Positions 383-51,153 of a stretch of 64,000 bases of DNA are shown here, piece by piece. The position numbers were made by a program, and so were the translations under genes. The stretch lies in contig CAKPGM010000001.1 of assembly GCA_934154805.1 (NCBI GenBank), positions 6,177-70,176 of the forward strand, written 5' to 3'. The number at the start of each line of letters is the position of its first letter. The stretch's first letter is position 1. The notes under the pieces are model-generated. The model made no database searches and had not been told where the DNA came from. It saw only the letters and a list, made by a program, of their open reading frames with translations. This DNA is from an uncultured Clostridia bacterium. Lineage in GTDB: Bacteria > Bacillota > Clostridia > TANB77 > CAG-508.

Positions 383-562
383 TTATGGCATTATTATCCA
401 GCTAAATGATAATCTTCCTTTTACCACTTTATTAGCATCCGCTACTGATTTATAAGGTCCGTCATGTCCCCTAGCAGAGTCTAATATATAAAATTTATAT
501 CCTTGACTTTTGTATTGACTTGGTGCTGGAATAATTGCTAATATGTGTCCGAGATTCTCCTC
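383..562 (-). pseudogene. out-of-frame C-terminal remainder of the hydrolase at 495-3029
   Basis: The +1 frame, open from 562 to stop 383-385, reads EENLGHILAIIPAPSQYKSQGYKFYILDSARGHDGPYKSVADANKVVKGRLSFSWIIMP. The GH(I/V)xxI segment is where C39-like peptidases carry the catalytic His. That frame is closed by TAA TAG immediately upstream (568-563), so the shift lies at about 551-562. Confidence 0.55.
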
Positions 563-3029: not shown

Positions 3030-3039
3030 TTAAACTCTC

Positions 3040-3951
3040 CTAAATATTTACACTATATTCCATATTTGTATATGTTCCATCATTATTTTGTTTCTTTGCG
3101 TTCGAAAATACTATACACTTAAATTCTCTCTCATATGTATATGCATTAGTAAATTTTATAGCAACATTCATTGTTACACCTTTTCTAATATAAATTTGCT
3201 CTTTTGTCAAAGTATCATTTGTTACAGAATATTTTATATCATTATTATCCAGTAAATATAGTGTATTTGTATTTTTTAAGTCATCTAACAATACATCTGT
3301 ATCACCATTATTTGTTATCTGTAGATAATATCTTTCATATTTCATATGTGTGTCTTTTTTTGTAACCTTAAATACTATATTATCTTGTTTTGTTTCTTTA
3401 TTTACTTCCGAGCTTCCTATATAATTATTAATATTTAGTTTGTATTGATTATCTTCTGTTACAACAGAAATAAAATCTTGTATATTATTTTCTGCCGTTC
3501 CTCCTGTTAAAAGTACGTCTTCTTTTATATCCACTTTAAAAGTATTATTAATCCAATTTTGTATTGTATAAGATTTTTTCGACCCAAAATTTTTTTCGTA
3601 ATAGTTATTGTAAAAATTGTCATAGCTAGAGTACATTATGCTTTGACAGTCTTTGCTAAGCATATTATATGCTTCTTCTGATTTTCCTTCATTGCATAAT
3701 TTAATGAATTCTTCTATAACATCTTTATGCTTAGAAGTTAATTCTAAATCAGTTGTTGAATCTTCTGAAATGGCTGGGCGTAAATCAGAATCTATATGTC
3801 TGTTTTGTTCTATAATTTCATTTAAATTATCTTGATTAGATTCCTTTGCAAAGTAATTTAGCGTCTGAATAATTGCAATTATAAATATAATGGCTAATAT
3901 TACTAAAATTATTTGTTTTCGATTTTGATTTATTATTCTTCTTATATTCAT
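3040..3951 (-). CDS. TM-anchored transfer-cluster protein of unknown function (position and size compatible with a VirB8/TcpC-like component)
   Basis: 303-aa ORF with an N-terminal TM helix (QIILVILAIIFIIAIIQTL) followed by a soluble region. It sits between the VirB6-like gene and the hydrolase. The VirB8-like assignment rests on position and architecture only. Confidence 0.35.
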   Translation of the reverse strand: MNIRRIINQNRKQIILVILAIIFIIAIIQTLNYFAKESNQDNLNEIIEQNRHIDSDLRPAISEDSTTDLELTSKHKDVIEEFIKLCNEGKSEEAYNMLSKDCQSIMYSSYDNFYNNYYEKNFGSKKSYTIQNWINNTFKVDIKEDVLLTGGTAENNIQDFISVVTEDNQYKLNINNYIGSSEVNKETKQDNIVFKVTKKDTHMKYERYYLQITNNGDTDVLLDDLKNTNTLYLLDNNDIKYSVTNDTLTKEQIYIRKGVTMNVAIKFTNAYTYEREFKCIVFSNAKKQNNDGTYTNMEYSVNI

Positions 3952-4014
3952 ACTTTCCTCATTTCTTCTTATGCCAATTAAGCCAAAAGGAATACTCCTT
4001 TTGGTTTAATTGTT

Positions 4015-6708
4015 TTATTCTCCTTTTACAATTCTTATCTGATTCATAGCATTGTCTGCCGCTTTTTTTGCCTGTCTAGCCGACAATCCCTTTTTCTCAA
4101 ATTTTCTTGCTAATGCTTTTGTCGCATTATCTGTTTTGTTTGCTTCACGGAACGTTCCAGCATCATAATGTGTAGATAGATTTGCTATTTCTATTGCATA
4201 TTTTTGTGCAAATTCTTCTTGTCTGCTTAATTCTTGTTGCAATCTTTGTTGTTCTGCTTCATTATTTGCAGCTTGTGCTGACTGCAATTGCTCTCTAACA
4301 CTTGCTGTTCTATTCTCTTTGATGTCATATATTCTATCCATCTCTTTGATGTCTGTTACACCGGTTCTTCTATATTTAGCGTACTCTTGCATTCTCTTTT
4401 CAATTTCTCTATTACGCTCTGAACGTTTCATTTCAGGATTTTCTTTCATTATCTTATCTGCAACATGTTGTCTATTTCCTATATCATTCATAAATTCTGC
4501 ATCAGCTTGTCTATTTTGAGCTTCTTTTTTACCATACGTAATTTGATTATATGCATCGCTAAGTGAACTTGCTGTATTCTCAATTCCTCTTGCTGTTTTG
4601 TTTCCTATTGCCTTTCCTGCAATTCCTCCTAACATTGCGCCTTTCCACATATCGTTCATATTACCGCCGACAATTCCACCGGCTAAACCTATTGCTGATC
4701 CTCCTATTAGAGCAGATCCTCTTAATGCCACTCTACCAGCACCTAATGCTGCTCTCTTTAGTAAAGTTTTGCCTGTCTTTCCTACTGGTATATCGTATTT
4801 TTCTCTTAAGTATTTTGTAAAGTTGCTTTCAGTTTTTCCTGTATTTGGAACACTAGTTACATCTAAGTCATCTTGGTTTGTAATAGGTAATCCACTCTCT
4901 GAATCCTGCAAGCTTGGTCCAGAATTTGCTCCTAAATTTCCTAATTCTTCATCAGTATATTCTCTACCAAATCCTATGTATTCATCCTCTTCATTATTTG
5001 TATTATTAGTATTCTGATTATTAGTATCTTGATTTGCTCCCATAGTAGCTGTTGCAGCTGCCGCACCACTTCCTATTGCCAAGTTGCCATCTTCGGCAGC
5101 TAGTGCATCTAATCCGTCTCCTTCTACTATATTTGGATCTGTAACATTTTTGTCTTTTGTTCTAATTTTATTAGATCCGCCACTTTCTTTACTTTTCTCT
5201 TTACCTTTTCCTAATCTTTGTAGTGCTTGTGCAGCTAATGCTCCACCTGCGAATCCCCCCATTGCTGGAGCTGTTTCGCTTCTGATACCAAACATACTCT
5301 TAATCATTTTTTCTGCTGGTACAATGAATGCTAATACACACACAGCATATAATGGAGATTCTACAACTAAGTCGATTGCTGATGTTACAAGTATCGTGTA
5401 TAGGACCAAATGTATAATTGGTAACATTGCATTTACTAAATATTCTCTTAACCAATATTCAAAAGCTTGTGCCCTTGAATCTTTTACTTTATCTATAGGA
5501 TATGTAAGCGCTACAAGTGGTGCAATTATTGTTAAAAATGTTAATATTACTATCCTCTTCAAATATATAAAGAAGAAATATATTGTATAGAATGTTAATG
5601 CTAAATACATTATTGTATATGTTAATTTATTCCATCCATCCGGATTTTCTGATAATATTCTATTATATCCAATTAGGTTTGTTGGAAATATTCCAGGTAC
5701 ATCGCCAGTATATGCACCAGAATCCTGATCTTTGAGTTGTTCAGTTAGCTCTTTTACTCCTGCTCCCATACTTGGATTTGTAGCTACTGCATTATTATAT
5801 GCATCATTCCAACTGTATTTAACTGTATTTCCGTTTGTGTCTACTACATTGACCAAAATGGTATTAATTGTTTTTGAACTTGTTTTTGGATTATCTGTTA
5901 CAAATAGTTTTTGTATTTCTTTTACCATAGTCATCGAGAATACCATAATATAGTGTAAGAAAAATACTAGGCATAGAGCAATTACCCAATCAATAAACAT
6001 TTGCTTATATTTTGCCTTGTCTGACGCAACAGCAGAAGTTATCATTCTTATTGCGACATACACTAACACAGAAAGTAATCCAACAATTGCAATTAATCTA
6101 AGTCCTTGATACCAATTTGAAATTACTTTTTTTAGTTTTCCAGCCGTTGAATATTCTTCTCCTCCTATCATTGTGTCTTGATATTCCGAAGAAGTAGTAT
6201 CACCAAAAAAGTCTGCGTCTAGGAAAGCAACTCTTCCAGCAAATATTTCAATTGGAGTCACCTTAATATTTGGTGCAACTAAATCCGATTTCTTTTTTAA
6301 ATATCCCATACCTTCAGGAACTGCGTCAGTATTTCTTCCAACTATCATTACTTTCTTTTCTTTCATATTAGATGATGGATTATCAACATCAAATATTGCT
6401 CTAATGCTTGCTTCATCTGTTTTTCCATCACATTGGTCAAAAACTACATCTCTCAAAGCCTTGTATACTCCCGAGTCAGATTTATTTACGGCAGACCCTA
6501 ATAACGAATCACCAGTTCCTACTGTTTTTCCTATTAAATTATTTGCAACATCACCGAGTGCTCTTAATAAATCGCATATTGGTTCTATAAGTTCACCACC
6601 AAAATCTGCCTGACTATATGTTGGCATTACAAAGGTAAATGTTAGCATTACTATTAGTAGTGATATGATAATCTTTTGCTTTATGCTTTTAACTTTTTTG
6701 TCTTTCAT
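4015..6708 (-). CDS. VirB6/TrbL/TcpH-like polytopic T4SS membrane protein with a long C-terminal extension
   Basis: 897-aa ORF with a signal peptide or TM at the N-terminus and several internal TM helices (e.g. LRLIAIVGLLSVLVYVAIRMI, VIALCLVFFLHYIMVFSM, IMYLALTFYTIYFFFIYL, ILTFLTIIAPLVAL). It also has an N/T/Q low-complexity stretch (NQDTNNQNTNNTNNEEDE), a Gly-zipper segment (GSALIGGSAIGLAGGIVGG) and a charged coiled-coil tail. It lies directly downstream of the VirB4 gene. Confidence 0.55.
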   Translation of the reverse strand: MKDKKVKSIKQKIIISLLIVMLTFTFVMPTYSQADFGGELIEPICDLLRALGDVANNLIGKTVGTGDSLLGSAVNKSDSGVYKALRDVVFDQCDGKTDEASIRAIFDVDNPSSNMKEKKVMIVGRNTDAVPEGMGYLKKKSDLVAPNIKVTPIEIFAGRVAFLDADFFGDTTSSEYQDTMIGGEEYSTAGKLKKVISNWYQGLRLIAIVGLLSVLVYVAIRMITSAVASDKAKYKQMFIDWVIALCLVFFLHYIMVFSMTMVKEIQKLFVTDNPKTSSKTINTILVNVVDTNGNTVKYSWNDAYNNAVATNPSMGAGVKELTEQLKDQDSGAYTGDVPGIFPTNLIGYNRILSENPDGWNKLTYTIMYLALTFYTIYFFFIYLKRIVILTFLTIIAPLVALTYPIDKVKDSRAQAFEYWLREYLVNAMLPIIHLVLYTILVTSAIDLVVESPLYAVCVLAFIVPAEKMIKSMFGIRSETAPAMGGFAGGALAAQALQRLGKGKEKSKESGGSNKIRTKDKNVTDPNIVEGDGLDALAAEDGNLAIGSGAAAATATMGANQDTNNQNTNNTNNEEDEYIGFGREYTDEELGNLGANSGPSLQDSESGLPITNQDDLDVTSVPNTGKTESNFTKYLREKYDIPVGKTGKTLLKRAALGAGRVALRGSALIGGSAIGLAGGIVGGNMNDMWKGAMLGGIAGKAIGNKTARGIENTASSLSDAYNQITYGKKEAQNRQADAEFMNDIGNRQHVADKIMKENPEMKRSERNREIEKRMQEYAKYRRTGVTDIKEMDRIYDIKENRTASVREQLQSAQAANNEAEQQRLQQELSRQEEFAQKYAIEIANLSTHYDAGTFREANKTDNATKALARKFEKKGLSARQAKKAADNAMNQIRIVKGE

Positions 6709-6727
6709 ACATACTCCTTTTTTTGCT

Positions 6728-8689
6728 CTATTTTCTTTGCTTCTCTGCTAGTTTATTAATATTGGTTTCAACAAATTCGAATTCCTTTGCAGTTGGTGTT
6801 ATTTGCAAGATAGCTGTGTCTTTTCCAACCTTTAATAAACCTTCTCCTTTGTTACATGTTACTAAGAAACCTGCTTCTCCTTCACTTAATTTAAATACTT
6901 CTTTTAGGTATTTTATTTCTGATTTATCTTGTGCTAATAATAATTTTGTATCTGAAGATGTAAGAACTGCTTGAACTTCTGGTTTCTCATAGAAGTCTTG
7001 GAATCTTTGCGAGATAATTGCTAAAGATACATTTCTTTTTCTAGCACGTCTTGCCATTGTGTTTAAGAAGTCAACTGCTTCTGGATATGGCAATAACATC
7101 CACGCCTCATCCACAAGAACCCTCTTCTTAGCAGCTTTTTTTCTATCTTCACTATTTTTCTTAACATATTTTTCCCAAATCCATGATAGTAGTATTTGTT
7201 GTGCAAGTGGTCTTGCAAATCTCTCTTCTAGTTGTGATATATCTAGATTAATGAATAATGTTCCGTCTAATAAATCAAATGTAGATTGTCCATCAAAATA
7301 TGCCATTTGTCCATCATATTTTCTTATGTACTGTTTCATAACCTTTAACAGATAGCTATAGTGAAATCTATAGTCTGGGTTTTGGTTTTCCTCTGATTTT
7401 CTCAATAGTCTTTCATACCAAGATCCTATTGTTGGCATTTGTTTCTTTCTTCTTCCAAGCATATTACCAGAGCTTTCCATAGTGCTTTCATATATACTTG
7501 AAGGATCACTATTAATACCTGCTGCAGCATATTCTTCTGATACTGCTTCTGCTATTATTTGTTTTGTTAACTCATTTACTTCTTGGCTTCTTGTACTACC
7601 TCTTGCCATTGTTAACAACGCCTGTGTAACGTCCTCCACTTTGTTTTCTACATTTAGTATCGTTTTTTCTCTTCCTGTTATTTCGTCTTTTACCATCTCT
7701 GTTTCTATATCAAAAACATTTATTATAGTGTTCGATGTAGGGCTTAATATAACATTTGTTCCGCCAAGACTTTCTGCAACTATTCTATACTCGCCCTCAG
7801 CATCTAGTGCTAAACTTTGTATTCCCATTAGAACTGCAGATCTTGATATTAGAGTCTTCATTGTAACAGATTTACCAGCACCAGACTTAGCAAATATAAC
7901 CATGTTATAGTTTGTTAATGAATTGTGGAAATTATCAAATAATATTGGTACTCCAGTTTGTTTATTGAACCCTAGTGGTATTCCTGTTATATGTCCAACC
8001 TCCGATGTTGTAAATGGAAATACTGTTCCCATTGATCTATGGTCAAAAGTGTGAGTTCTCTTTATTTTATCAGAATTGAATGGCAAGTTTGATTTAAACG
8101 CTTCTTCTTGCATTCCCCAGGCACTCTTTATTCCTACTAATGATTTAGACATTTCAGAAGACAATAGTTTTGTTAGTTTATCTAAATCTTCCAAATTGTA
8201 AGCAAACAACGTTGCTACGATTGAAGCTGAATATAATTTATTAAAGCCTGCAGCTATTTCATCTCTTAATTGCTCTGCTTCAAATCTTTTTTGTGCTAAT
8301 GTACTTTCTCTATTTATATTTCCCTTATCTGCTGCCACAATTCTTTCTGTTTCAAGTTCATTTATTGTTCTATTTAATTCATTTTGAGAACTAGATTCTG
8401 GAATAGGATTTATATATATAGATGTATTTATATCTCCAAACAAGTACATATCTCTAAATAATTCAGGGAATGTACACATTCTTGGAAGTGCTGATATAAA
8501 GAAACTTCTTGCATATCTTTTTGTATTTGAAATTATCTCCAAGTGATCGATATTGCTAGCGTCTATTCCTGATGGTGCAATTAGTTCTTTTATTGTTTTT
8601 TTATGTAATATCTTTGGATCTTCTCCAACAGAATAATCATTTCTGTTTGCTTGAAGGTTATCTTGTGTTTTTTTCTTCTTATTGAACAT
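6728..8689 (-). CDS. virB4: VirB4/TraE-family conjugal transfer ATPase
   Basis: 653 aa. Walker A is FAKSGAGKSVTMK and Walker B-like is RVLVDEAWMLL. The N-terminal LIAPSGIDASNIDHLEI... resembles Gram-positive VirB4 (TcpF/Orf16-type). Its start overlaps the end of the upstream gene by 11 nt. Confidence 0.85.
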   Translation of the reverse strand: MFNKKKKTQDNLQANRNDYSVGEDPKILHKKTIKELIAPSGIDASNIDHLEIISNTKRYARSFFISALPRMCTFPELFRDMYLFGDINTSIYINPIPESSSQNELNRTINELETERIVAADKGNINRESTLAQKRFEAEQLRDEIAAGFNKLYSASIVATLFAYNLEDLDKLTKLLSSEMSKSLVGIKSAWGMQEEAFKSNLPFNSDKIKRTHTFDHRSMGTVFPFTTSEVGHITGIPLGFNKQTGVPILFDNFHNSLTNYNMVIFAKSGAGKSVTMKTLISRSAVLMGIQSLALDAEGEYRIVAESLGGTNVILSPTSNTIINVFDIETEMVKDEITGREKTILNVENKVEDVTQALLTMARGSTRSQEVNELTKQIIAEAVSEEYAAAGINSDPSSIYESTMESSGNMLGRRKKQMPTIGSWYERLLRKSEENQNPDYRFHYSYLLKVMKQYIRKYDGQMAYFDGQSTFDLLDGTLFINLDISQLEERFARPLAQQILLSWIWEKYVKKNSEDRKKAAKKRVLVDEAWMLLPYPEAVDFLNTMARRARKRNVSLAIISQRFQDFYEKPEVQAVLTSSDTKLLLAQDKSEIKYLKEVFKLSEGEAGFLVTCNKGEGLLKVGKDTAILQITPTAKEFEFVETNINKLAEKQRK

Positions 8690-9863
8690 CTTCTTTTGTC
8701 TCCTTTCTTTGTCTCTTTCTCTCTTTTCTTATTCTTTCTTGTGCATCCTCTGCAACTTCGTCTCCTAGCATGCCCGCATTTTCCTGAATATACATTTCTG
8801 CTAGACTGCTTACAATATCATCGATATTTTGTTTTTTCTCTGTGTATTTCTTTGCTTTTTCAGATTGTACTTCCATAACTTTTTCGTTTGCTTTTTGTTT
8901 TGCTTTTATTTCTATCTCCTCATCAAGTAATTGCATCTTCTTATCCATGTAATCTTGTGCTGTTAAATATAGCTCATCAAATCTTGCTCTTCTTGCTCTA
9001 TCTATTCCATAATCTTCAGATTCATCTCTATTGTATGCTACATATAATAAATCAGCTAATTCTGTAGAGTTTAATATTCTTCCTACTACTCCTGATACGC
9101 TTAAAGCTCTAATTACTGATTTAGATTTTGTATACAACTCTGAAAAAGCTCTCTCTCTAATTTCGTCTTTATCTAAATATCCTTCATCTCCAGTTTCAGA
9201 ATAGTATGAAAGAACAGCGTAATATTTTTCATTTAGTATATTTTTATTTAGACTCATTCTTTCTGTATTATAGATTATATCTTTTCCATATTCATATAGA
9301 TTTTTTTGTTTGATATATTCATAGTATTCTTTTCTTACTAAATCTTCCGATATATTAGGATTCTTTGCTATTTGTTCATATCTCATTTTTTGTTTAGCAT
9401 ATTCTTTTTCTATCTCATCAACCTTTTCCCTATAATTTTGCAAACTACTTTCAAGGTTAATTTTTCTTGTTTGTATGTATAATTGTATTGGTTCTTTTAA
9501 AGTGTTTAAAAATTGAGAAAAACCTTCTTCTACACCAACTTTTTCCTCTTGTGACATCAAATCATAGTTTATTCCTTGGCATTCAATAACCATTATAAAC
9601 CTTTTTCCATTCTTTTGGATAATCATATTGTCTTCTATTTTATCAAACTCCATAAAGTTGAATACTGAATCTATAGTATATTGCTTAATTTTTGACTTTG
9701 AATTTTTTGCATTCTCATCTTCAGTTTGTTTTAGACTTTCCTCACCTTTTTCTTTCATTTTCATCTTTAGGTATATAACAGCTAAAACAATCAGTAATAT
9801 TACCATTATTCCCGCAATTATTAATAGTGCTGTTGTTAATAAACTTATATTATTATTTGTCAT
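8679..9863 (-). CDS. T4SS-associated membrane-anchored coiled-coil protein (function unknown)
   Basis: The ORF track gives 8679-9887. I prefer the ATG at 9863 (MTNNNISLL...) because GGGGAGGA lies 6 nt upstream. One TM helix (LLTTALLIIAGIMVILLIVLAVIYL) is followed by K/E-rich coiled-coil sequence. The gene overlaps both neighbours, which suggests translational coupling. Confidence 0.5.
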   Translation of the reverse strand: MTNNNISLLTTALLIIAGIMVILLIVLAVIYLKMKMKEKGEESLKQTEDENAKNSKSKIKQYTIDSVFNFMEFDKIEDNMIIQKNGKRFIMVIECQGINYDLMSQEEKVGVEEGFSQFLNTLKEPIQLYIQTRKINLESSLQNYREKVDEIEKEYAKQKMRYEQIAKNPNISEDLVRKEYYEYIKQKNLYEYGKDIIYNTERMSLNKNILNEKYYAVLSYYSETGDEGYLDKDEIRERAFSELYTKSKSVIRALSVSGVVGRILNSTELADLLYVAYNRDESEDYGIDRARRARFDELYLTAQDYMDKKMQLLDEEIEIKAKQKANEKVMEVQSEKAKKYTEKKQNIDDIVSSLAEMYIQENAGMLGDEVAEDAQERIRKERKRQRKETKEDVQ

Positions 9864-10200
9864 CTGTATCCTCCCCATCATATACATATATTTTGTTTTT
9901 CTTTTGCTTAAATTTTATTGCTCTTATAATTACATCATCCAGCGTTTGTCCTGCATTCACTTTTGCCCATTTAACCCCCGATAAATTTGGTACTTTGAAA
10001 GTTCCAATAACAAACCCGATTAATGCAAATATTATTAGTAAGATTATTCCAATTTGTGTCAATTTTATTAATTTGAATATAAAAAATAGTATCAACCCTA
10101 CAATCGACAATCCTGCTGTAAACATTAGTGATTTTCTGGTAAATATAAATAATATTCTACCCTCGCCTTTCACATTTCTAGGTAAATTATATGTTCCCAT
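9853..10200 (-). CDS. PrgI/TcpE-family (VirB3-like) small T4SS membrane protein
   Basis: 115 aa. The N-terminus YNLPRNVKGEGRILFIFTRKSLMF is followed by two TM helices. It lies immediately upstream of the VirB4 region, which is the usual VirB3 position. Confidence 0.65.
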   Translation of the reverse strand: MGTYNLPRNVKGEGRILFIFTRKSLMFTAGLSIVGLILFFIFKLIKLTQIGIILLIIFALIGFVIGTFKVPNLSGVKWAKVNAGQTLDDVIIRAIKFKQKKNKIYVYDGEDTDDK

Positions 10201-10270
10201 CTTTTGATTTTTCTCCTTATTATAATTTCTCTTTTATATTATAACATATAAATAAGAAAAAAGTAACAAA

Positions 10271-10303
10271 ATAACAAAAAAAAGTGCATTTTATGCACTT
10301 TTT
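10271..10303 (-). terminator. intrinsic terminator/attenuator between the pilin genes and the rest of the T4SS operon
   Basis: A perfect 9-bp stem (aaagtgcat 10281-10289 / atgcacttt 10293-10301) with a 3-nt loop. On the minus-strand RNA it is followed by a U-run (plus-strand A-run 10276-10280 and beyond). It sits 54 nt after the stop of the third pilin gene. Confidence 0.6.
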
Positions 10304-10356
10304 AATATTTTTGTAATATTTTTGTAATATCTATGTAACGTTATCAAAAACAAAAA

Positions 10357-10728
10357 CTATTGAACATTTCCATTAATTGTGTTGTATACAATTTTTACTA
10401 TTGTTGTACCTGCAAATAATAGTAATGCACCAACAATATATGGTATCATAGTTTTCTTGTATTCTGCTTTTTGTTCAACACTACCAGTCATATATTTTAT
10501 ACCTATAACTAATATTACAACAATTGCTATGATTATACCAGCAACTTGAATTATATTAACTATTTTTCCACCAATCTCAGTTAACTTAGTTGTATCTCCT
10601 GCTTGTGCATTTTCCACACCATTAATAACTCCATTTACATCTGGTGCTGCTAGTACAACACTTGCTATAGATGCAACCATCATTATTGTTAATAATATAG
10701 TAGATATAATTTTTACTGTTTTCTTCAT
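10357..10728 (-). CDS. VirB2/TrbC-like pilin-type protein, paralog 3
   Basis: 123 aa: signal peptide (…SVVLA/AP), hydrophobic helix, charged loop IKYMTGSVEQKAEYKKTMIPYIVG, and a second hydrophobic helix. The topology matches VirB2. It lies upstream of the VirB3/VirB4-like genes. Confidence 0.5.
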   Translation of the reverse strand: MKKTVKIISTILLTIMMVASIASVVLAAPDVNGVINGVENAQAGDTTKLTEIGGKIVNIIQVAGIIIAIVVILVIGIKYMTGSVEQKAEYKKTMIPYIVGALLLFAGTTIVKIVYNTINGNVQ

Positions 10729-10793
10729 ATATATTCCTCCTTATCTTATTATTTTTATATAAACCTCTTACTGTCGTAAGAATGTTAATAACT

Positions 10794-11171
10794 TTACCAA
10801 TTTACTCCTTGTAGTAGATCTACTACTAATTTCCATATTCCAAACGCTCCAAATACTATAATACATCCTACAACATATGGAATAAGTTTTTCTTTTATTT
10901 GTGCTTTAGCTTCTACTGAACCTGTTACAAATTGCATTCCTATTATTATTCCTGCAATTATTGCTACTATTATTCCTATAAAGAGTAGTATTCCAAAAAC
11001 AGTATTCGATGTTTCTTTCACTTTGTCTTCGCTAACTGCCTTGCTTGGATCTCCCTGATTAATGAAGTTATCTCCTTTTTTTATAATATCATCTGGTCCA
11101 ATTGCTTTTACCTGGTATCCTGTTAACATTATAGTAGCAAATAATAATATAAATACTATAATTTTTTTCAT
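10794..11171 (-). CDS. VirB2/TrbC-like pilin-type protein, paralog 2 (most divergent)
   Basis: 125 aa with the same architecture. The loop motif is MQFVTGSVEAKAQIKEKLIPYVVG. Confidence 0.5.
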   Translation of the reverse strand: MKKIIVFILLFATIMLTGYQVKAIGPDDIIKKGDNFINQGDPSKAVSEDKVKETSNTVFGILLFIGIIVAIIAGIIIGMQFVTGSVEAKAQIKEKLIPYVVGCIIVFGAFGIWKLVVDLLQGVNW

Positions 11172-11184
11172 ATCTTTTCCTCTT

Positions 11185-11601
11185 TTATGTTATATTTTTA
11201 GAAGCAGTTTCATATATAATTTTAACTATTGTTGTTGTTACTGTTATTAATCCTACTCCTACAACAAACGGTACCATTGTTTTCTTATATTCCGCTTTTT
11301 GTTCAACACTACCTGTCATATATTTAATTCCTAGTAATCCTATAGAGATTAGAGCTATTATTATTCCAATCATTTGAATTACATTTATAATTGTTCCAAC
11401 TATTCCTAATGTTTTAGTATTGTTTTCAAGGTTGTCTTTTTTATAGTCATCAGTGTTTATTATCGTCTTTCCACTGCTTTTTATGCCGTCCCCTCCGTCA
11501 TCCGGCCTTGCATATACAACATTGCTAAATGTAGTTATTGACATTGTTATGGCAATCAAAATTATAATTATTTTGTTTATTATTCTAATATTTTTCACCA
11601 T
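11185..11601 (-). CDS. VirB2/TrbC-like pilin-type protein, paralog 1
   Basis: 138 aa with the same architecture. The loop motif IKYMTGSVEQKAEYKKTMVPFVVG is nearly identical to paralog 3. Confidence 0.5.
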   Translation of the reverse strand: MVKNIRIINKIIIILIAITMSITTFSNVVYARPDDGGDGIKSSGKTIINTDDYKKDNLENNTKTLGIVGTIINVIQMIGIIIALISIGLLGIKYMTGSVEQKAEYKKTMVPFVVGVGLITVTTTIVKIIYETASKNIT

Positions 11602-42153: not shown

Positions 42154-42305
42154 TATTATTACTACTTTTACTGATTTTCTTAAATGTGATAAGGATTTTT
42201 TTACTATATTTATGATAAACAGCTCCTATCTTTTTAATTTTTACTTTTTATATTTTATATTAAATTGCTTTTTTTCTCAAGTACTACTTTACATAATTTT
42301 AGATT

Positions 42306-42906
42306 TTATTTTTCTTCTTTTACGGATTCAATCTCTTCGTCTGTCGCTCCAGAGTATTTTTTTATTAACTCTATTTCCAAATTATCTTTCAACATTCTTT
42401 TAATAATTTCTGTTTTTGTTTCTTTTACTCCGTAATTCTTTTCCTATTTCTGTTCCTTCTCTAATTCCAGTATTGTATAGTGCTTTTTCATCCATTATGG
42501 CTTTTTGTCTTAGTTCTGCTAGTCTCTCCATTTTCTCATCTTCGCTCATTTCTCTTACTGTTATTACTGCTTTTTTTACATCTTCATTCTTTTCCATAAT
42601 TTCTTTAACCTCCTCAGAGTTCGGATCTTCTAAAAACATTACCCATTGGTTCTTCTTATTATTCTTATCATTTTGGTATGCTTCTCTTACTCTTTTTAAG
42701 TTAATTATACGTATTTCAAACACGTCTGTCAACACTTTCTCTGGCTTTTCTTTTTCTCTTACGTTCCATATTGTTTCCATTCTTTTTAACTCTTTCGTTA
42801 CATCTATTTCAAAATCTGTTATTGCTATTATTACTACTTTTCTTGCTTTATTATATGTATCTCCTCTCTGTATTTGCTTGGCATATATTCTTAAAATTCG
42901 ACATGT
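42306..42906 (-). pseudogene. decayed Rpn-family (YhgA-like, PD-(D/E)XK) recombination-promoting nuclease / putative transposase gene
   Basis: The frame of track ORF 42400-42780 stays open upstream without an ATG (…RILRIYAKQIQRGDTYNKARKVVIIAITDFEIDVTKELKR-METIW…) until a stop at 42907-42909, so the nuclease N-terminus is missing. After ...EIGKE, the +1 frame continues with family-typical sequence (KNYGVKETKTEIIKRMLKDNLEIELIKKYSGATDEEIESVKEEK) to a stop at 42306-42308. This implies a 1-nt indel in the A-run near 42445. Confidence 0.55.
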
Positions 42907-43029
42907 TTATAGAAACTGAAAATAAGTTTATCTATTTTCTATTAGCCTTCATACTTGATCACTGGTTTTATAAAAAATAAATAAACTTATTTTTGACGAC
43001 ACAAACAAAGCCTGTTATTATACAGTCCT

Positions 43030-43383
43030 TTAATCTTCTTTCATCTTACTTAGTATTGTTGACATACTATTGCAAAACAAGATCATATCATCTATATTTT
43101 TATTGTCACATTTTCTCATTATATTTTCTAGTTCTTTATTGATTTCTTTTGACTTTAATTCTTTGTTAGTCATTTTATCAAAAAATATGATCCTATCTAA
43201 TGAGAGTTGCAATACCGTACAAATTTTTAAAACTGTTTCTACACTAGGTTTTGTTTTTCCTCTTTCTATATTGCTATAAAAGTTATTAGAAATATCTGCC
43301 TGCTCTGCAACCTCTGTTTGCTTCATATTTAGTTCTTCTCTCTTTTGTTTAAACATTTTTCTTAATTCTTCATAATAGTTCAT
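43030..43383 (-). CDS. XRE-family helix-turn-helix transcriptional regulator
   Basis: 117 aa. HTH_3 motif: LNMKQTEVAEQADISNNFYSNIERGKTKPSVETVLKICTVLQLSLD. Confidence 0.8.
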   Translation of the reverse strand: MNYYEELRKMFKQKREELNMKQTEVAEQADISNNFYSNIERGKTKPSVETVLKICTVLQLSLDRIIFFDKMTNKELKSKEINKELENIMRKCDNKNIDDMILFCNSMSTILSKMKED

Positions 43384-43526
43384 AGTAAATAAGCCTCTCT
43401 AAATATATTCCTTATAATGATTTTATAATTTTATTGATTCGAAATAAATATTCTACAAGTCTATTGCATTATATCTATAAGTATGTTATTATAAATAAAA
43501 AAATATACTTATGGAGAATTTATATT

Positions 43527-43790
43527 ATGAATATAGATACTTTAAATAGTTTTATAGAAAACAGAATTCAAGACAATTATTCTATCTTACTTGATAATTT
43601 AAAATACATATCTCTTAATGATGTGTACACAAATAAATACCAATCCTTTATATCTAAAATTTCAGATGATGATAAAACATTGTTCAATGAACTTATAGAT
43701 ATTAAGAGCAGTCTTTTTACAGAGGAAATTTATCTATCTTATATTGTGGGACTTCACGATGGATTCGAATTTAATAAAGGAATTAAATAA
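43527..43790 (+). CDS. small hypothetical protein (87 aa)
   Basis: The ATG at 43527 follows GGAGA. The track ORF begins earlier, at 43434. Its end, ...YLSYIVGLHDGFEFNKG, loosely resembles the end of ORF 63048-63338. Confidence 0.45.
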   Translation: MNIDTLNSFIENRIQDNYSILLDNLKYISLNDVYTNKYQSFISKISDDDKTLFNELIDIKSSLFTEEIYLSYIVGLHDGFEFNKGIK

Positions 43791-43808
43791 CAAAAGAAAG
43801 GAAATGTT

Positions 43809-44210
43809 ATGAGCAAATTATATGATACATATAAGAATTTAAAGCTATGCGAAAACAATTATATTTATCTGTTCAAATCTGGTATTTTTTATATTTTACT
43901 AGCTGATGATGCTAAGCGTGTTTCTCTTTCTTTAGGACTAAAACTTACTAAGTTTAATGATGAGGTTCTAAAATGTGGCTTTCCTATTTCTGCAAAAGAT
44001 AAATATTTTCAGTTACTTAAAAATCATAATTTTGATTTTAAAATAATAGACAATAATACATCTTATAATATATGTGAATATACAGTAAAAAATGGATTTC
44101 AGGAAATGTTAGATACAATTTTAAAGGTGGATACTAATAATTTATCAATTAAAGAAGCTTATGAATTTATAGACAAAATAAAAAATATGGCTAACGCTTT
44201 ATCGCATTAG
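43809..44210 (+). CDS. small MutS-domain-I-like protein (MSL-like), copy B
   Basis: 133 aa. YDTYKNLKLCENNYIYLFKSGIFYILLADDAKRVSLSLGLKLTKFNDEVLKCGFPISAKDKYFQLLKNHNFDFKIID aligns by eye with the E. coli MutS N-terminus ([46 protein letters not shown]...[28 protein letters not shown]). Its 3' end overlaps the RT gene's 3' end by 4 nt, in convergent orientation. Confidence 0.6.
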   Translation: MSKLYDTYKNLKLCENNYIYLFKSGIFYILLADDAKRVSLSLGLKLTKFNDEVLKCGFPISAKDKYFQLLKNHNFDFKIIDNNTSYNICEYTVKNGFQEMLDTILKVDTNNLSIKEAYEFIDKIKNMANALSH

Positions 44211-45151
44211 CTCTTTTTCAATAGGTTTTTATAACAAGTTATGCTGTTAGTTAGATTAATTAAATCTATTTTTTTGTTTTCATATAGATATTTCTTGTAT
44301 TTTATTTTTCTTTTCATACTTCTATATTTTGCATATCCTCCCCTCTTATTGCGTCCTAAAAATATAAAATTATTCGTGTTTTTATATATTCTGCTTTTTC
44401 TATTTAGAACTAACTTTTCTTTATTTAAAAATATTTTAATCTTTTCAAAACACTCTTTTAGATATTCTTTTGAAGGATGAAACAACAAAAAGTCGTCCTG
44501 ATATCTTACATAATATTTTATTTTTAAATCTTCTTTTATATAATGATCTAAATCATTTAAGTAAAACACTGCTAAAACTTGACTAGTCATATTGCCTATT
44601 CCCAGTCCATTTTCTTCACTATCAATTATCTTAAACACAATATTGAGCGCATCTTTATCCTTTATTCTTTTGACTATTTTCTCTTTTAATCTCGTATGAT
44701 CTATACTCGCAAAGAATTTACTAATATCGCATTTTAATATATAATAGTCTTTGTACTTTATATTACACTTTCTAATAAAGTTTCTCTCAAGTCTCAATCC
44801 CTCTTTTGTTCCTCGATCTTTAATACTTGCTACATTCTCTGGTATTAAGCAAGGATTTAAAGTCGGATAAAGTATCTGTCTACTTACTAAATGATTTATA
44901 ATTTTATCTTGTAAATTTTGACTCACTATCCTTCGCTCTTTTGGTTCATATATTTTAAAAACTGTATATGGTCCAACTTCATAGTTTTTATTTATCATAA
45001 TATCGTATATTCTGCTTATATAAACACACTTATATTCTTTATATTTTCTTACTTTTCTTTTGTTTTTTGTATTTTTACATACTTCATCAAAAGCCTGCAT
45101 TATATTTTCCATCTTACAAACATATTGATATAAATTATTTTTTCTTTTCAT
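44207..45151 (-). CDS. DGR-type reverse transcriptase
   Basis: 314 aa: EPKERRIVS (motif 2), GLGIGNMTSQVLAVFYLN (the I/LGxxxSQ motif diagnostic of DGR RTs), and VRYQDDFLLF (the catalytic YxDD box). It has no maturase or endonuclease extension. It lies 208 nt downstream of the TR. Confidence 0.9.
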   Translation of the reverse strand: MKRKNNLYQYVCKMENIMQAFDEVCKNTKNKRKVRKYKEYKCVYISRIYDIMINKNYEVGPYTVFKIYEPKERRIVSQNLQDKIINHLVSRQILYPTLNPCLIPENVASIKDRGTKEGLRLERNFIRKCNIKYKDYYILKCDISKFFASIDHTRLKEKIVKRIKDKDALNIVFKIIDSEENGLGIGNMTSQVLAVFYLNDLDHYIKEDLKIKYYVRYQDDFLLFHPSKEYLKECFEKIKIFLNKEKLVLNRKSRIYKNTNNFIFLGRNKRGGYAKYRSMKRKIKYKKYLYENKKIDLINLTNSITCYKNLLKKS

Positions 45152-45358
45152 TAGTTTACTCCTTTATAATAATAAAAAGAAGTAGTTATAAAACTACTTC
45201 AAAAACAGTTCTAAAATATAATCCCTTTCGCAAATGCTACTAACAATCATATTTATCTATTTTTATTTATAACATATATATGTTAAAGGACTACGGTTTG
45301 TTTCTATATTATCTCTTATATGATATATTAGCATATAACCACAGTGTATAGAAGCTAT

Positions 45359-45502
45359 GGGGCGGACACCAAAGCCGTTAGCATTCCAGTTACCGTTCGA
45401 GTTGAACATATTGTTGCCAGCGTTGACATTGCCGTTATTAACATCACCAGGACCGAAGTTAGCATTGTCAGAGTTAGCATTAACAGCGGGCGAAGCTAGC
45501 CA
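45359..45502 (-). ncRNA. DGR template repeat (TR)
   Basis: 144 nt that align without gaps to 46556-46699. TR differs from VR at 23 positions, and 21 of those are adenines in the TR sense strand (T on the plus strand). It lies between avd and the RT. Confidence 0.9.
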
Positions 45503-45523
45503 CATCAACCAAGCCCTATAAAA

Positions 45524-45871
45524 CTAATTTATATTAATAGTTTTTTTCCATCCAGTTGCATATTTTATTATATCATCTAATTTTTGCCCAAATTTTACAT
45601 ATCTTTTGCTATTTATGATCTCTTTGTCATAGCATAGATTTAGTAAAAAATCTATGACTTTAACTTTTGCAATTATGTTTTCTATTAGATCTTCTCTTTT
45701 ATCTTGAGAAGTAAGATTCGCTTTATATGCAAGTTCTAACAACTCATAGCTTTCTTCTTTTAATTTGCTTTTTATTTCTATATCTTTTTTAGGAAAATTA
45801 TTTAGATGTACATCCATATAAACTATTAATTCTCTAATGTAATTTATTACTTTAAATTTTTCTTCTTTCAT
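45524..45871 (-). CDS. avd: DGR accessory variability determinant (Avd; four-helix-bundle, 23S-rRNA-IVS protein family)
   Basis: 115 aa, basic and helical (…INYIRELIVYMDVHLNNFPKKDIEIKSKL…AKVKVIDFLLNLCYDKEII…KFGQKLDDIIKYATGWKK). It lies immediately upstream of the TR and overlaps the preceding gene by 20 nt. Confidence 0.75.
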   Translation of the reverse strand: MKEEKFKVINYIRELIVYMDVHLNNFPKKDIEIKSKLKEESYELLELAYKANLTSQDKREDLIENIIAKVKVIDFLLNLCYDKEIINSKRYVKFGQKLDDIIKYATGWKKTININ

Positions 45872-46301
45872 TTATTAAACTCTCTATTTGGCTTATTAAT
45901 TCCTTATCTTTGTTATAAGTATTTAAATAATTTGTTATTTTCTCTATTCTTATTTTGATTGCATTTTCTGCCTTTCCCAACTCATAATATTTTTCATAAT
46001 TATTCAAATTCTTAAAGTTACTGTTTTCTCGTTCTTCATAGTTATTTCTTCTGTCTAGCACTATGTAATTTATTTTTTTACTTTCTAGTTGAGCTATTAC
46101 TTTATTATATGCCGATTTTGGAAAAGAACATGAATAGATATTGTTTTCTAAAATTTTTATTTTGTATTTTTCTAGATAACTAATTATAAAAGTATCTTTT
46201 CCATAGCAATAATAAAATGAACCTATTTCTATGAGTACTATATAATTTTTGCATATTTGTTTTACATTTTGTACCATATTTATTATTTTTTCTATCTTCA
46301 T
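45852..46301 (-). CDS. small MutS-domain-I-like protein (MSL-like), copy A
   Basis: 149 aa. KQICKNYIVLIEIGSFYYCYGKDTFIISYLEKYKIKILENNIYSCSFPKSAYNKVIAQLESKKINYIVLD follows the same pattern as copy B and MutS domain I. It sits between the DGR target gene and avd. Confidence 0.55.
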   Translation of the reverse strand: MKIEKIINMVQNVKQICKNYIVLIEIGSFYYCYGKDTFIISYLEKYKIKILENNIYSCSFPKSAYNKVIAQLESKKINYIVLDRRNNYEERENSNFKNLNNYEKYYELGKAENAIKIRIEKITNYLNTYNKDKELISQIESLINERRKI

Positions 46302-46393
46302 TTGTTCCTCTTTTAAAGCGAGCCCCCAGAAGTCACGAGGCCTTCTTGGGGCTTTTGCTGTTTATGTTTTGCATTCAAACAAGTTATTACTTA

Positions 46394-47746
46394 TTAGCTG
46401 GCTCCTCCACCTGAATTCCCGTAATTGCCTGCCTCTCCGTTTGTTGCATTTCCATTTGCTACAGCATCATTATTTGAGTATGCTGACCAATCGTCTTCTT
46501 TTCCATCTATTACGTGCAAATCTTCAATAGTGATATTAGAATTTAGATAAACTAGGGGGCGGACACCAAAGCCGTCAGCAAACCAGCCACCGCCCGAGAT
46601 GAACATATCGACGCCAGCGAAGACACCGCCGTTACCCACATCACCAGGACCGAAGATAGCATCGTCAGAGTAAGCATAAACACCGGGCGAAGCTAGCCAG
46701 TAAGACTTTGCATAATTTGCATCACTTGTTGTTCCACTAAACAATATTGTTTTTAATGCATCATCAATTGTTAGGTTACCCCATTGATAATAATATGCTG
46801 TTGCTGGTTCTGTTTTTGTACCTTCTGTTGCATTTGTTTTATTATTTATATAACTCTCTGGGGTATAATCACTTGATTTATATGTATATTGATTTCCTAA
46901 TACTCCCCATTTGTCTATATTAGTGTTTGAGTCTGTATTTGCATATACCTTTTGGTTAGTATAATCTACTGTCACTCCTATTAATCTATTGATTTCTTCT
47001 GCTGTCAAACTTTGTGCTGTTCCTAAACTTGTGCTATATATCCCACTTATATTTTTTAATATTGTTTTGCAATTTACATATGAATATGCTCCTTTTAAAA
47101 CCAGATATGGTGACTTTTCCCAATCTTCTGCTGTAGTATCTGTTTTCATTTCCTTTTTTATTGGACTTTGTGAGATCAACATTAGTTTTTCACCTGTTTT
47201 ATCTAGTCCTAACACTTGCCAATATGTGTTTTTTGTTGCTGTATATTTTTGGTCTGCCCATCCATTTTCATTTGTTACTGTTGTATAAGTCTTACTTTCA
47301 TCCACATAATCATTATAATTTAAATAATCCCCGACTTTTATATTTCCATCTTTAAACGCTTGTACTAAAGTTTTAGCATCTGATGGGAATCTTACTGTTT
47401 CTTTCCCTATTACTAGCTCTTTTGTGTCTTTTATGGTATTAATATCATCTTCACTTATTAGCCCTCTATCTTTTAATCTTGTTAAAAAGTCATCCATACT
47501 TTCGTGTGACCCTGCACCATTATCTGATGCAAATTTTTCAGCTTCCCATAGGCTTATTTCATCTCTTATTGAGCCAGCTCTACTTGCGTTTCTTGCATCT
47601 TTTGATTTCTGGATTATACCATTTTGATCAACTAACAAATTGATACTTACACCCGCCAGTATCAAAAGTACTACAATTGTTACTACTAGTGCTATTAATG
47701 TTATAGCATTTTGGTTCTTTAGCTTAATGTTTTTACTTTGTTTCAT
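46394..47746 (-). CDS. DGR variable (target) protein: pilin-like N-terminal hydrophobic segment and C-terminal variable ligand-binding (C-type-lectin-fold-like) region
   Basis: I chose the start at 47746 (MKQSKNIKLKNQNAITLIALVVTIVVLLILAGVSI…) after GGAGG. The track ORF starts 15 codons earlier. The C-terminal sequence YWLASPGVYAYSDDAIFGPGDVGNGGVFAGVDMFISGGGWFADGFGVRP is encoded by the VR. Confidence 0.85.
   Translation of the reverse strand: MKQSKNIKLKNQNAITLIALVVTIVVLLILAGVSINLLVDQNGIIQKSKDARNASRAGSIRDEISLWEAEKFASDNGAGSHESMDDFLTRLKDRGLISEDDINTIKDTKELVIGKETVRFPSDAKTLVQAFKDGNIKVGDYLNYNDYVDESKTYTTVTNENGWADQKYTATKNTYWQVLGLDKTGEKLMLISQSPIKKEMKTDTTAEDWEKSPYLVLKGAYSYVNCKTILKNISGIYSTSLGTAQSLTAEEINRLIGVTVDYTNQKVYANTDSNTNIDKWGVLGNQYTYKSSDYTPESYINNKTNATEGTKTEPATAYYYQWGNLTIDDALKTILFSGTTSDANYAKSYWLASPGVYAYSDDAIFGPGDVGNGGVFAGVDMFISGGGWFADGFGVRPLVYLNSNITIEDLHVIDGKEDDWSAYSNNDAVANGNATNGEAGNYGNSGGGAS
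46556..46699 (-). repeat. DGR variable repeat (VR) inside the target gene
   Basis: It is the counterpart of TR 45359-45502 at a constant offset of 1197 nt. 14 of the 15 Asn (AAY) codons in the TR are replaced in the VR by Y, D, I, G, F or V codons. Confidence 0.9.
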
Positions 47747-47844
47747 TTGTTTACCTCCATATATTCTTAAAAATTTGGTTATTATATTCATATCTTATAT
47801 CAACAATTTCCTTTTGTAAATACTTTTCGAGATTTTTTCTTATT

Positions 47845-48837: not shown

Positions 48838-51153
48838 TTATTTTATTATTTCTAAGCCAGCAAATTTTGCCATTAACCTCTTATGTCCAACCTTGTCAAA
48901 TTCTAGGTCTACCTTGATATCGTCTCCTTCTTGTTCTAGTTTTGTTATTGTACCTTCTCCAAATTTCTTATGATATACTCTTTGACCAACTTGGTATTTG
49001 CTTAGGTCTACATTACTGTTTTGGTTATTTTGTTTTATTGAATTTAAGAAACTCTCTGCTGTTCTAAATTGGAACCCTGCAGTCTTGTTTTCTTGTAATA
49101 TTTTCGCAGTGTTCTTCTTGTCCTCTTCATCCATTTTGTATGTTTTTACAGTTTGTCCTTTTCCATAGCTCCATCTATAACCAGAATCTTTGAATTCATC
49201 TTCCTTAGAGTTACTGTTTACCATCTCAGCATAGCCTTCTAACAACTCTTCTGGAATCTCTTGAACAAATCTTGATACTTGATTATAGCTTGTTGCTCCA
49301 AATATTGTTCTGTGTTTAGCACAAGTTAGATACAAATATTGTTTTGCTCTAGTTATTCCTACATAAAATAGTCTTCTTTCTTCTTCAAGTGCTTGTGGTT
49401 CTCCTATTGATTTATATCCTGGGAATATTCCTTCTTCCATTCCCACTAGGAATACAACTGGGAATTCAAGTCCTTTTGCACTATGTAAAGTCATCAATGT
49501 TACAGAGTCTTCTTGATCTTCCATTCCATCTATGTCGCTTGAAAGTGTTATGTTTTCTAAGAATTCAGCCAAAGTATTGTCCGCTTCTTGTTCTTCAAAT
49601 TCTATTGCAACTGTTAAAAACTCCTCTAGGTTTTCTATCCTTGTTTCGGCTTCCACACTATTTTCAAGTTCTAGTGCCTTTGTATATCCTGTTTTGTTTA
49701 AGGTTTCTTTTATTAAATCAGAGATTTTAATTTTATCTTTCTGCTCTCTTAGATATTCAATTTGCTCGATAAACTCCCTTGAATATGCATACACTCTGCT
49801 CAATTCATATTTTTCTGCATCTTTTATTATTTCGTACATTGGTATACCAGAGTTCTCTGATATTTCTTGAACCCTGTCTAAACTCGTTTTACCTATTCCT
49901 CTTTTTGGTTCATTAATTATTCTTTTTAAAGATAAATTATCTGCTGTATTATGAATTAATCTTAAATATGCAATTATGTCTTTTATTTCTTTTCTTTCGT
50001 AGAATTTTAAGCCTCCAATTACTTTATATGGTAAACCTTCTCTCATTAATATATCTTCTATTGCTCTTGATTGAGCATTCATTCTATATAATACAACAAA
50101 GTCCGAATTTTTATAGTATTCCTCTCTTTTTAGATGTTCTATTTGCTCTACTATGTATCTTGCTTCATCATATTCATCCTCTCCATTGTAAATACAAGGG
50201 ATTTTTCCTTCTTCGTTTTGTGTCCACAATTTTTTGTCATATTTATTTTCGTTGTGCTTAATTACTGCGTTTGCAGCTTTTAAGATATTGCCTGTACATC
50301 TATAATTCTGCTCTAATTTTATTATCTTAGTTCCTGGAAAGTCTCTTTCAAAGTTTAGTATATTGCTAATGTCAGCTCCTCTAAAACTATAAATTCCTTG
50401 GTCATTATCACCTACGGCTGTTATATTTCCATATTTTGATGCCAACATTGATACCAACATAAATTGTGCTTTGTTTGTATCTTGGTACTCATCTACTAAT
50501 ACATATTGGAATTTTTCTGTGTAATAATCTAGTACATCTGGATTTTCTGTTAGTATTTTTATTGTAAGATTTATTATATCATCAAAGTCTAAAGCATTGT
50601 TTTCTTTTAATTTTTGTTGATATAATGCATATAATTCTGCAATTTTTTCTCTTCTAAAATCTCCAGCATATTTCACTCCATATGCCTTTGGTTCTAGCAT
50701 TTCATTTTTACCATTACTTATTTCTGTAAGTACTCCTCTGTCTGTGAATAGCTTATCATCTACTTTTAGTGCTTTTATACATTCTTTTATTAATGTTTTT
50801 TGGTCTGATGTATCAAATATTACAAAGTCTGTTTTATATCCCACTCTATCTATGTATCTTCTTAATATTTTTACGCAAATTGAGTGGAAAGTTCCCATCC
50901 ATAGGTCTTTTGCTGCATCTCCAATTAGTTTTTCTATTCTTTCTTTCATCTCGTTTGCAGCTTTATTTGTAAATGTTATTGCAAGTATATTCCAAGGTTT
51001 TACCCCATTTGCTATCTCATACGCAATTTTATGCGTTAATACTTTTGTTTTTCCGCTTCCAGCACCAGCGATTACAAGGCAAGGTCCCTCTGTTGCTAGT
51101 ACCGCTTCTTTTTGTTTATCATTTAATCCTTCAATTATTTCTTCTTTGTTCAT
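48838..51153 (-). CDS. pcrA: ATP-dependent DNA helicase PcrA (UvrD/Rep superfamily 1)
   Basis: 771 aa: AGAGSGKTKVLTHKIAY (motif I), VDEYQDTN (motif II), QNYRC and TLHSAKGLEF. Confidence 0.9.
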   Translation of the reverse strand: MNKEEIIEGLNDKQKEAVLATEGPCLVIAGAGSGKTKVLTHKIAYEIANGVKPWNILAITFTNKAANEMKERIEKLIGDAAKDLWMGTFHSICVKILRRYIDRVGYKTDFVIFDTSDQKTLIKECIKALKVDDKLFTDRGVLTEISNGKNEMLEPKAYGVKYAGDFRREKIAELYALYQQKLKENNALDFDDIINLTIKILTENPDVLDYYTEKFQYVLVDEYQDTNKAQFMLVSMLASKYGNITAVGDNDQGIYSFRGADISNILNFERDFPGTKIIKLEQNYRCTGNILKAANAVIKHNENKYDKKLWTQNEEGKIPCIYNGEDEYDEARYIVEQIEHLKREEYYKNSDFVVLYRMNAQSRAIEDILMREGLPYKVIGGLKFYERKEIKDIIAYLRLIHNTADNLSLKRIINEPKRGIGKTSLDRVQEISENSGIPMYEIIKDAEKYELSRVYAYSREFIEQIEYLREQKDKIKISDLIKETLNKTGYTKALELENSVEAETRIENLEEFLTVAIEFEEQEADNTLAEFLENITLSSDIDGMEDQEDSVTLMTLHSAKGLEFPVVFLVGMEEGIFPGYKSIGEPQALEEERRLFYVGITRAKQYLYLTCAKHRTIFGATSYNQVSRFVQEIPEELLEGYAEMVNSNSKEDEFKDSGYRWSYGKGQTVKTYKMDEEDKKNTAKILQENKTAGFQFRTAESFLNSIKQNNQNSNVDLSKYQVGQRVYHKKFGEGTITKLEQEGDDIKVDLEFDKVGHKRLMAKFAGLEIIK

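Follow-up and report, generated by a model that had tools for sequence, protein, structure and literature searches.

A diversity-generating retroelement target with a pilin-like N-terminal module in an uncultured Clostridia bacterium

The 64,000-nucleotide stretch analyzed here, hereafter the window, derives from an uncultured Clostridia bacterium (assembly GCA_934154805.1, contig CAKPGM010000001.1, positions 6,177 to 70,176) and contains a complete diversity-generating retroelement (DGR) on the minus strand at 44207-47746. The element is arranged in the order target gene, MutS-like (MSL) accessory gene, avd, template repeat (TR) and reverse transcriptase (RT). Its target gene encodes a protein of 450 amino acids (aa) that joins a pilin-like N-terminal module to a C-terminal module carrying the variable region (VR). 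The features of the cassette, including a second MutS_I-like open reading frame (ORF), are the following:

46394-47746, minus strand: DGR target gene, 450 aa, with a pilin-like module and a VR-bearing C-terminal module (ORF, ribosome-binding site, homologues, AlphaFold2 model)
46556-46699, minus strand: VR, codons 350-397 (WLASP...FGVRP), from the repeat alignment, the codon table and population variation
45852-46301, minus strand: MSL accessory gene, 149 aa (Pfam MutS_I, 30.4 bits); the same slot is filled in two related loci, L015 and L018
45524-45871, minus strand: avd accessory gene, 115 aa (Pfam bAvd, 41.1 bits; NCBIfam DivGenRetAVD, E = 2e-11, 43.9 bits, below the 80-bit cut-off)
45347-45502, minus strand: TR, with 15 AAY, 2 GAY and 1 ATG codons in the register of the VR
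44207-45151, minus strand: DGR RT, 314 aa (Pfam RVT_1, 55.6 bits; motifs IGNMTSQ and YQDD)
43809-44210, plus strand: second MutS_I-like ORF, 133 aa, convergent with the RT gene (Pfam MutS_I, 35.5 bits), located in a 4-kb segment missing from the related locus L081; a possible second accessory gene, from its Pfam match

The nearest NCBIfam model for the RT is that of group II intron RTs. The repeat in the target spans 46544-46699 and is 83% identical to the TR over 156 nt, with 22 of the 24 core mismatches falling at TR adenines (12 A-to-G and 10 A-to-T). The last 18 nt of both repeats are identical and GC-rich (GGCTTTGGTGTCCGCCCC), and likely represent the core of the initiation of mutagenic homing element. 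The TR-adenine codons permit approximately 2.1e19 theoretical proteins with zero stop codons. When the target protein is aligned with 130 homologues that are 74-93% identical (131 sequences, the close homologues below), 17 hypervariable positions emerge between 357 and 391, of approximately 3 bits each, all of which are TR-adenine codons; column entropy elsewhere is 0-0.5 bits almost everywhere. These patterns identify a genuine DGR with past activity. The VR occupies residues 350-397 of 450 and is, as the initial annotation had stated, distal to the pilin-like N-terminus and removed from the extreme C-terminus; 53 residues follow it, close to the 55 or so estimated there.

Two target codons outside the VR, 280 (46907-46909) and 319 (46790-46792), match the VR codons in variability among the close homologues, with 2.9 and 2.7 bits and 10-11 residue types. 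Both are beyond the writing reach of the DGR. These residues may contribute to the lining of the binding site and evolve in concert with the VR.

The DGR engine is an indel between strains, since a close relative with the same synteny (L081; ERZ28760236 contig_4606) lacks the 4-kb segment (42299-46342 in the window versus 11363-11441 in L081) and retains the target gene, which is frameshifted within the VR. The missing segment comprises MSL, avd, the TR, the RT, the second MSL, a weak DUF6809-like ORF, a helix-turn-helix gene and a PD-(D/E)XK transposase fragment. At the edge of the indel, a 126-aa ORF (42400-42780, minus strand) matches only the C-terminal part of PDDEXK_2 (profile positions 137-226); this gene fragment could have been left behind when the cassette was moved.

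The target gene is read from the ATG at 47746, preceded by GGAGG 7 nt upstream, to its end at 46394. A longer ORF starting at 47791 was considered and rejected, as it has no ribosome-binding site and the extension is absent from the homologues, which start at the 47746 ATG or later. The protein begins MKQSKNIKLKNQNAITLIALVVTIVVLLILAGVSINLLVDQNG, and its N-terminus reads as MKQSKNIKLKNQNA followed by ITLIALVVTIVVLLILAGVSI and then NLLVDQNG. Its parts are distributed along the gene as follows:

47705-47746, minus strand: leader peptide, residues 1-14 (MKQSKNIKLKNQNA), hydrophilic, with four Lys and Ala as the last residue (sequence and family statistics)
47642-47704, minus strand: hydrophobic stretch ITLIALVVTIVVLLILAGVSI, equivalent to α1N, with Ala at +5 (sequence, conservation in 131 homologues, register with MshA and PilE1)
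47387-47746, minus strand: complete pilin-like module, residues 1-120 (alignment with operon pilins, BLASTP, model)
46394-47386, minus strand: C-terminal module, residues 121-450, a compact α/β domain followed by a tail of low complexity that starts near residue 434 (AlphaFold2 domain model)

Class III signal peptides are defined by a hydrophilic leader of 6-26 residues, Gly at position -1, a stretch of 21 hydrophobic residues and Glu at position +5, and those of archaea tolerate exceptions to Gly(-1) (PMC4471445). The target has a leader of 14 residues and a hydrophobic stretch of exactly 21. In the register of class III signals, both Gly(-1) and Glu(+5) are replaced by Ala, which agrees with the initial annotation of a pilin-like N-terminus devoid of the two hallmark residues. 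Among the 131 close homologues, leaders measure 12, 14 or 22 residues in the Ala(-1) forms and 7 in the Gly(-1) forms. Since 97 of these sequences carry Ala at -1, 34 carry Gly and none has a third residue, the alignment indicates that Ala(-1) is a stable state of this subclade and not a lesion. Gly and Ala are also the permitted residues at -1 in archaeal class III signals. The surrounding motif is strongly conserved, with an entropy of 0 at residues 21-30 (invariant) and of 0.33 at residues 11-20. In the family at large, 122 motif-bearing representatives display Gly(-1) in 112 cases and Ala(-1) in 5, Ile(+1) in 115, Ala(+5) in 108 and Glu(+5) in a single one. The family consensus is [KRNQ]G↓ITLIALV(I/V)TI(I/V)VLLILAG..I..L.G.NGI, where the arrow marks the boundary between -1 and +1. 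Ala(+5) is, by these counts, the rule across the family, including the pilins encoded in pilus operons that are described below. Pfam N_methyl matches 41 of 73 family members.

Homologues of the target protein are abundant: more than 6,000 were matched in one search, and an exhaustive search with the whole target retrieved 14,227 cluster representatives at E ≤ 1e-3, 838 of them at E ≤ 1e-10. A scan of species-representative genomes returned at least 397 relatives, almost all from metagenome-assembled genomes (MAGs) of uncultured gut Clostridia such as Clostridium sp. CAG:567, from which 80 loci were kept for locus analysis. The best full-length match in these genomes, among the matches listed, is 39% identical to the target.

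Five of the 80 loci, all from related Clostridia MAGs, carry a conserved type IV pilus operon with the order PilM/N-like, PilO-like, a 148-aa membrane protein (p148), one or two pilins of 131-167 aa, PilD-like, two minor pilin-like genes, PilB, PilT and PilC. Pfam identifies A24_N_bact (103 bits), T2SSE with MshEN, a second T2SSE and T2SSF in these operons, and the best NCBIfam matches of the operon genes are PilB, PilT and GspF/PilC. The motif-bearing pilin is always located between p148 and PilD. The operon pilins all begin with KG↓ITLIALVITIIVLLILAGVSIAMLTGxNGILT, with Gly(-1) and Ala(+5), and two of the three that were scanned score above the N_methyl cut-off (23.2 and 22.4 bits; the third, 20.8). 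One conserved gene of the operon has an acidic residue at +5, the Asp of G↓FTGID.

When an operon pilin is compared with the window, the N-terminus of the target is the sole match (50% over 64 aa, E = 1.6e-15), and a BLASTP comparison of the two sequences yields 48% identity over 69 aa (E = 1e-20). In the multiple alignment, residues 1-120 of the target run along the complete 131-167-aa pilins, including the second helix and the terminal strands. A profile of the full-length family yields seven weak matches to PDB sequences; five of them, including the best, are type IV pilins (PilE1, MshA, PilA and geopilin), and the remaining two are phage capsid proteins. All three matches of a profile of the pilin module are pilins. 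In the weak match to MshA, G↓FTLIELVVVIIILGILA pairs with G↓ITLIALViTIiVLLILA in exact register, and the N-terminus of PilE1 is also in exact register with the hydrophobic stretch. Because the same module heads the pilins of five pilus operons and aligns end to end over residues 1-120, the comparison shows that the first 120 residues are homologous to the pilins of type IV pilus operons. The initial annotation had described this N-terminus as mimicking a prepilin signal; the resemblance is borne out, and mimicry gives way to common descent.

The same homology excludes an ordinary transmembrane helix with no relation to pilin families, an outcome that the initial annotation had allowed for. It also makes it very improbable that the N-terminus is an ordinary Sec signal peptide, cut by signal peptidase I to leave the protein released or wall-associated. 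In outline, a hydrophobic core behind a basic n-region is Sec-like; nevertheless, the 21-residue stretch has no AxA-type site after it, and the helix runs on into a conserved α1C-like segment common to the operon pilins.

The full-length AlphaFold2 model of the target (pLDDT 90.8) presents a helix at residues 17-39, a break at DQNG, a second helix at residues 44-75, two short helices and one β-hairpin. These elements are followed by a separate, compact α/β domain (residues 121-433), which is also seen in a model of residues 121-450 alone (pLDDT 92.1, pTM 0.91). The VR lies on consecutive strands comprising residues 349-358, 363-371, 374-377, 388-395 and 397-401. Adenine-directed rewriting affects 17 codons on this β-strand face of the distal module.

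A C-type lectin or FGE-like fold around the VR, proposed in the initial annotation, found no significant match by Foldseek, Pfam, PHROGs or hhalign at the available sensitivity. The best Foldseek matches of the full and domain models have E values of 0.71 and 0.88 against the PDB and of 0.46 against BFVD, with root mean square deviation values above 15 Å for the long alignments, and no C-type lectin or FGE entries occur among the PDB and BFVD matches listed. Neither Pfam (73 and 24 family members scanned) nor PHROGs provides a family for the C-terminal domain, and the family profile has no significant C-type lectin match among PDB sequences. Using hhalign, only the end of the VR (…G-V/F-R-P-V) aligns with Bordetella phage Mtd (E = 0.15) and with an FGE-like C-terminus from locus L017 (E = 0.066), at a probability below 1%. 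These negative searches may have missed a C-type lectin fold, because loop-rich examples of it can evade Foldseek. For the annotated VR regions in their survey, Roux et al. 2021 'systematically' obtained C-Lec folds (PMC8144416).

Taken together, the target is probably an adhesin of modular, type IV pilin-like build, and the neighbouring DGR hypermutates its distal domain. The preprotein would insert with its N-terminus inside and its C-terminus outside by means of the 21-residue hydrophobic helix, and a prepilin-type peptidase would cleave after residue 14, which in the target is Ala and in most relatives Gly. The mature protein would then be extracted by the type IV pilus machinery and end up at the tip of the pilus, or on a short pseudopilus like that of the archaeal bindosome. 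In this way, the 330-aa module would reach out across the cell wall, and its variable β-strand face might bind changing ligands there, e.g., glycans of the host or of mucus, other cells or phages. The whole family lacks Glu5, and assembly therefore cannot rely on the canonical salt bridge between Glu5 and the N-terminus; the operon partner with Asp(+5) may supply the missing acidic residue.

Several observations weigh against this reading. The target is not recognized by the signature models of pilins: Pfam N_methyl returns E = 0.013 and 15.4 bits versus a cut-off of 21.2, neither N_methyl nor TIGR02532 recognizes it, and an NCBIfam scan of the target gives zero matches. Such scores would suit a chance resemblance, in which an unrelated transmembrane helix happens to look like a prepilin. 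This explanation is effectively refuted, however, by the identical module at the position of the pilin in five type IV pilus operons, by an alignment that is significant past the hydrophobic stretch, and by the register-exact matches to solved pilins. With regard to the structure, the modelled region after α1 consists of helices and one hairpin and has no clear four-strand pilin head. In model systems, Gly(-1) has been called absolutely critical for cleavage, and Glu5 mutants are incapable of homopolymerizing (PMC4471445); the target has Ala at both positions. Genes for a prepilin peptidase, a pilus ATPase or a platform protein are absent from both the 64-kb window and L081. The last point concerns the PilD-like proteins of the related operons, which are found at the following positions:

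L029, 1353-2174: PilD-like protein
L060, 10521-11339: PilD-like protein
L061, 10553-11368: PilD-like protein
L070, 10970-11785: PilD-like protein

These proteins have a strong A24_N_bact match with CxxC...CxxC, and Asp 126 and 176 (L061 numbering) are invariant. They have no match to Peptidase_A24 even at E ≤ 10, and the GxGD motif is absent, so that cleavage is uncertain even in the related operons. The PilD-like proteins could either be inactive or represent divergent peptidases whose evolution went hand in hand with that of the I(+1)/A(+5) substrates.

The main rival to this reading is an uncleaved signal-anchor, in which the pilin-derived N-terminus serves as a single-pass anchor (N-in, C-out) and the protein is a tethered receptor that never enters a filament, Ala(-1) blocking the prepilin peptidase in this subclade. 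The residue at -1, the lack of pilus genes in the window and the lack of a recognizable peptidase domain in the PilD-like proteins of the relatives all speak for it, as do the longer leaders of the Ala(-1) forms (12-22 aa versus 7 aa for the Gly forms) and the description by Roux et al. 2021 of most cellular DGR targets as binding proteins anchored in the membrane (PMC8144416). A plain anchor, on the other hand, would not need the rest of the class III motif, which is conserved down to invariance, and the occurrence of only Gly and Ala at -1 in the close homologues corresponds to the pair permitted in archaea. Furthermore, a helical stalk of approximately 60 residues may be too short to clear the Gram-positive wall. 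Overall, we consider the uncleaved anchor unlikely, although it deserves to be kept in view.

The pilin-like module is not restricted to the DGR target. The 80 loci contain 93 motif-bearing ORFs of 67-892 aa, and the C-terminal parts of ten of them, scanned with Pfam, include fn3, FGE-sulfatase-like, RCC1 propeller, BspA-type leucine-rich repeat and GLUG domains. DGR cassettes of the same layout adjoin motif-bearing targets in three further MAG loci (L015, L018 and L043), and an RT is lacking within 10 kb in five loci that encode homologues of the C-terminal module. Nine predicted viral contigs of IMG/VR (L082-L090) encode proteins that share the N-terminal module, the match being confined to target residues 2-138, and phages or prophages of the lineage may use the same carrier signal. 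A prophage origin of the target was considered and rejected: none of the nine contigs has the full protein, and the neighbourhood in the window is chromosomal, with PcrA, MreBCD, MinC and a penicillin-binding protein.

More speculatively, and only as a tentative extension, these uncultured gut Clostridia might possess a type IV filament with an archaeal-like signal (Gly or Ala at -1, Ala at +5) and a PilD without GxGD, and might use that signal as a general carrier for many modular adhesins, a bacterial analogue of the bindosome undetected by pilin signatures. One of these adhesins would be hypermutated by a DGR on a VR scaffold that has no PDB neighbour, beside the C-type lectin scaffold. For DGR biology, a pilin module would offer a concrete display route for common cellular targets that have so far been described just with an 'N-terminal transmembrane domain', and the VR is carried by a confidently modelled scaffold that standard tools cannot place in the C-type lectin fold. 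In bacteria, Glu5 is considered nearly invariant; the very large family described here lacks it, even in pilins inside pilus operons, and escapes surveys of modular pilins based on N_methyl or TIGR02532. If the proteins are processed and displayed by the pilus machinery, abundant gut bacteria would carry a large and partly hypermutable adhesin repertoire on pili.

Elsewhere in the window, at 495-11601 on the minus strand, there is a Gram-positive-type type IV secretion (conjugation) block, which is unrelated to type IV pili and includes the following genes:

10357-10728, 10794-11171 and 11185-11601, minus strand: three TrbC/VirB2-like pilin genes
9853-10200, minus strand: PrgI
6728-8689, minus strand: VirB4/TraG-P-loop ATPase
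4015-6708, minus strand: 897-aa protein with a weak, below-cut-off match to T4SS_pilin
495-3029, minus strand: 844-aa protein with a C39-like peptidase domain

The PcrA/UvrD helicase comprises 771 aa in the window (48838-51153) versus 1,133 aa with an intein-splicing domain in L081 (5540-8941). On sequence grounds, this length difference is a presence/absence polymorphism of an intein.

Searches of the literature found no paper that links DGRs with type IV pili, and a motif-string search gave nothing relevant; the closest report refers, in one line, to a VR within a 'G-type pilin' domain (PMC11661182). Modular type IV pilins are known from other bacteria, e.g., Streptococcus sanguinis PilB, with a vWA module, and PilC, with a lectin module, which are proposed pilus-tip adhesins (PMC8179133). 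The target resembles them in having a small N-terminal pilin module and a bulky C-terminal module in a monoderm Firmicutes, as residues 1-120 align with stand-alone pilins and residues 121-433 constitute a separate domain. By contrast, S. sanguinis PilB and PilC have the canonical G(-1)/E(+5) and are recognized by IPR012902, whereas the Ala/Ala target is missed by signature models. Moreover, the effector module is hypermutated by a DGR only in the target, and incorporation into a pilus is here an expectation derived from homology.

With membrane-bound DGR proteins (the clusters of Roux et al.; the lipoproteins Legionella LdtA and Treponema TvpA), the target shares an N-terminal anchoring signal, a C-terminal VR domain and adenine-directed diversification by RT and Avd. 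It differs from them in that its anchor is a pilin module instead of a lipobox or a generic transmembrane helix, and in that its VR domain has no detectable C-type lectin match and is followed by 53 residues. The MSL accessory class and the architecture that contains it were described by Wu et al. 2018 (PMC5758913). The cassette corresponds to their Architecture D, with target, MSL, avd, TR and RT on one strand and an MSL that accompanies avd without HRDC; unlike Architecture D, there is a second MutS_I-like ORF convergent to the RT gene.

The Sulfolobus bindosome (PMC4471445) likewise comprises large proteins, in this case sugar-binding ones displayed by a type IV filament system, with a class III-type signal in which Glu5 is often absent and -1 is not always Gly, and combines one N-terminal module with many cargoes. 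The machinery of the relatives differs from the archaeal one, being bacterial and type IVa pilus-like (PilB with MshEN, PilT, PilC and PilMNO). Taken as a whole, the target combines two known kinds, the DGR target and the modular pilin, and points to a large Glu5-less pilin-like family that signature models have missed.

GspK is a minor pseudopilin without Glu5 that sits at the tip of the pseudopilus in type II secretion. The target is similar to GspK, whose modularity has been noted (PMC8179133), in the lack of an acidic residue at +5, in its large extra domain and in its proposed tip position. Unlike in the case of GspK, the small pilins encoded in the operons of the lineage are also devoid of Glu5, and the missing Glu is therefore not specific to tip subunits in these bacteria.

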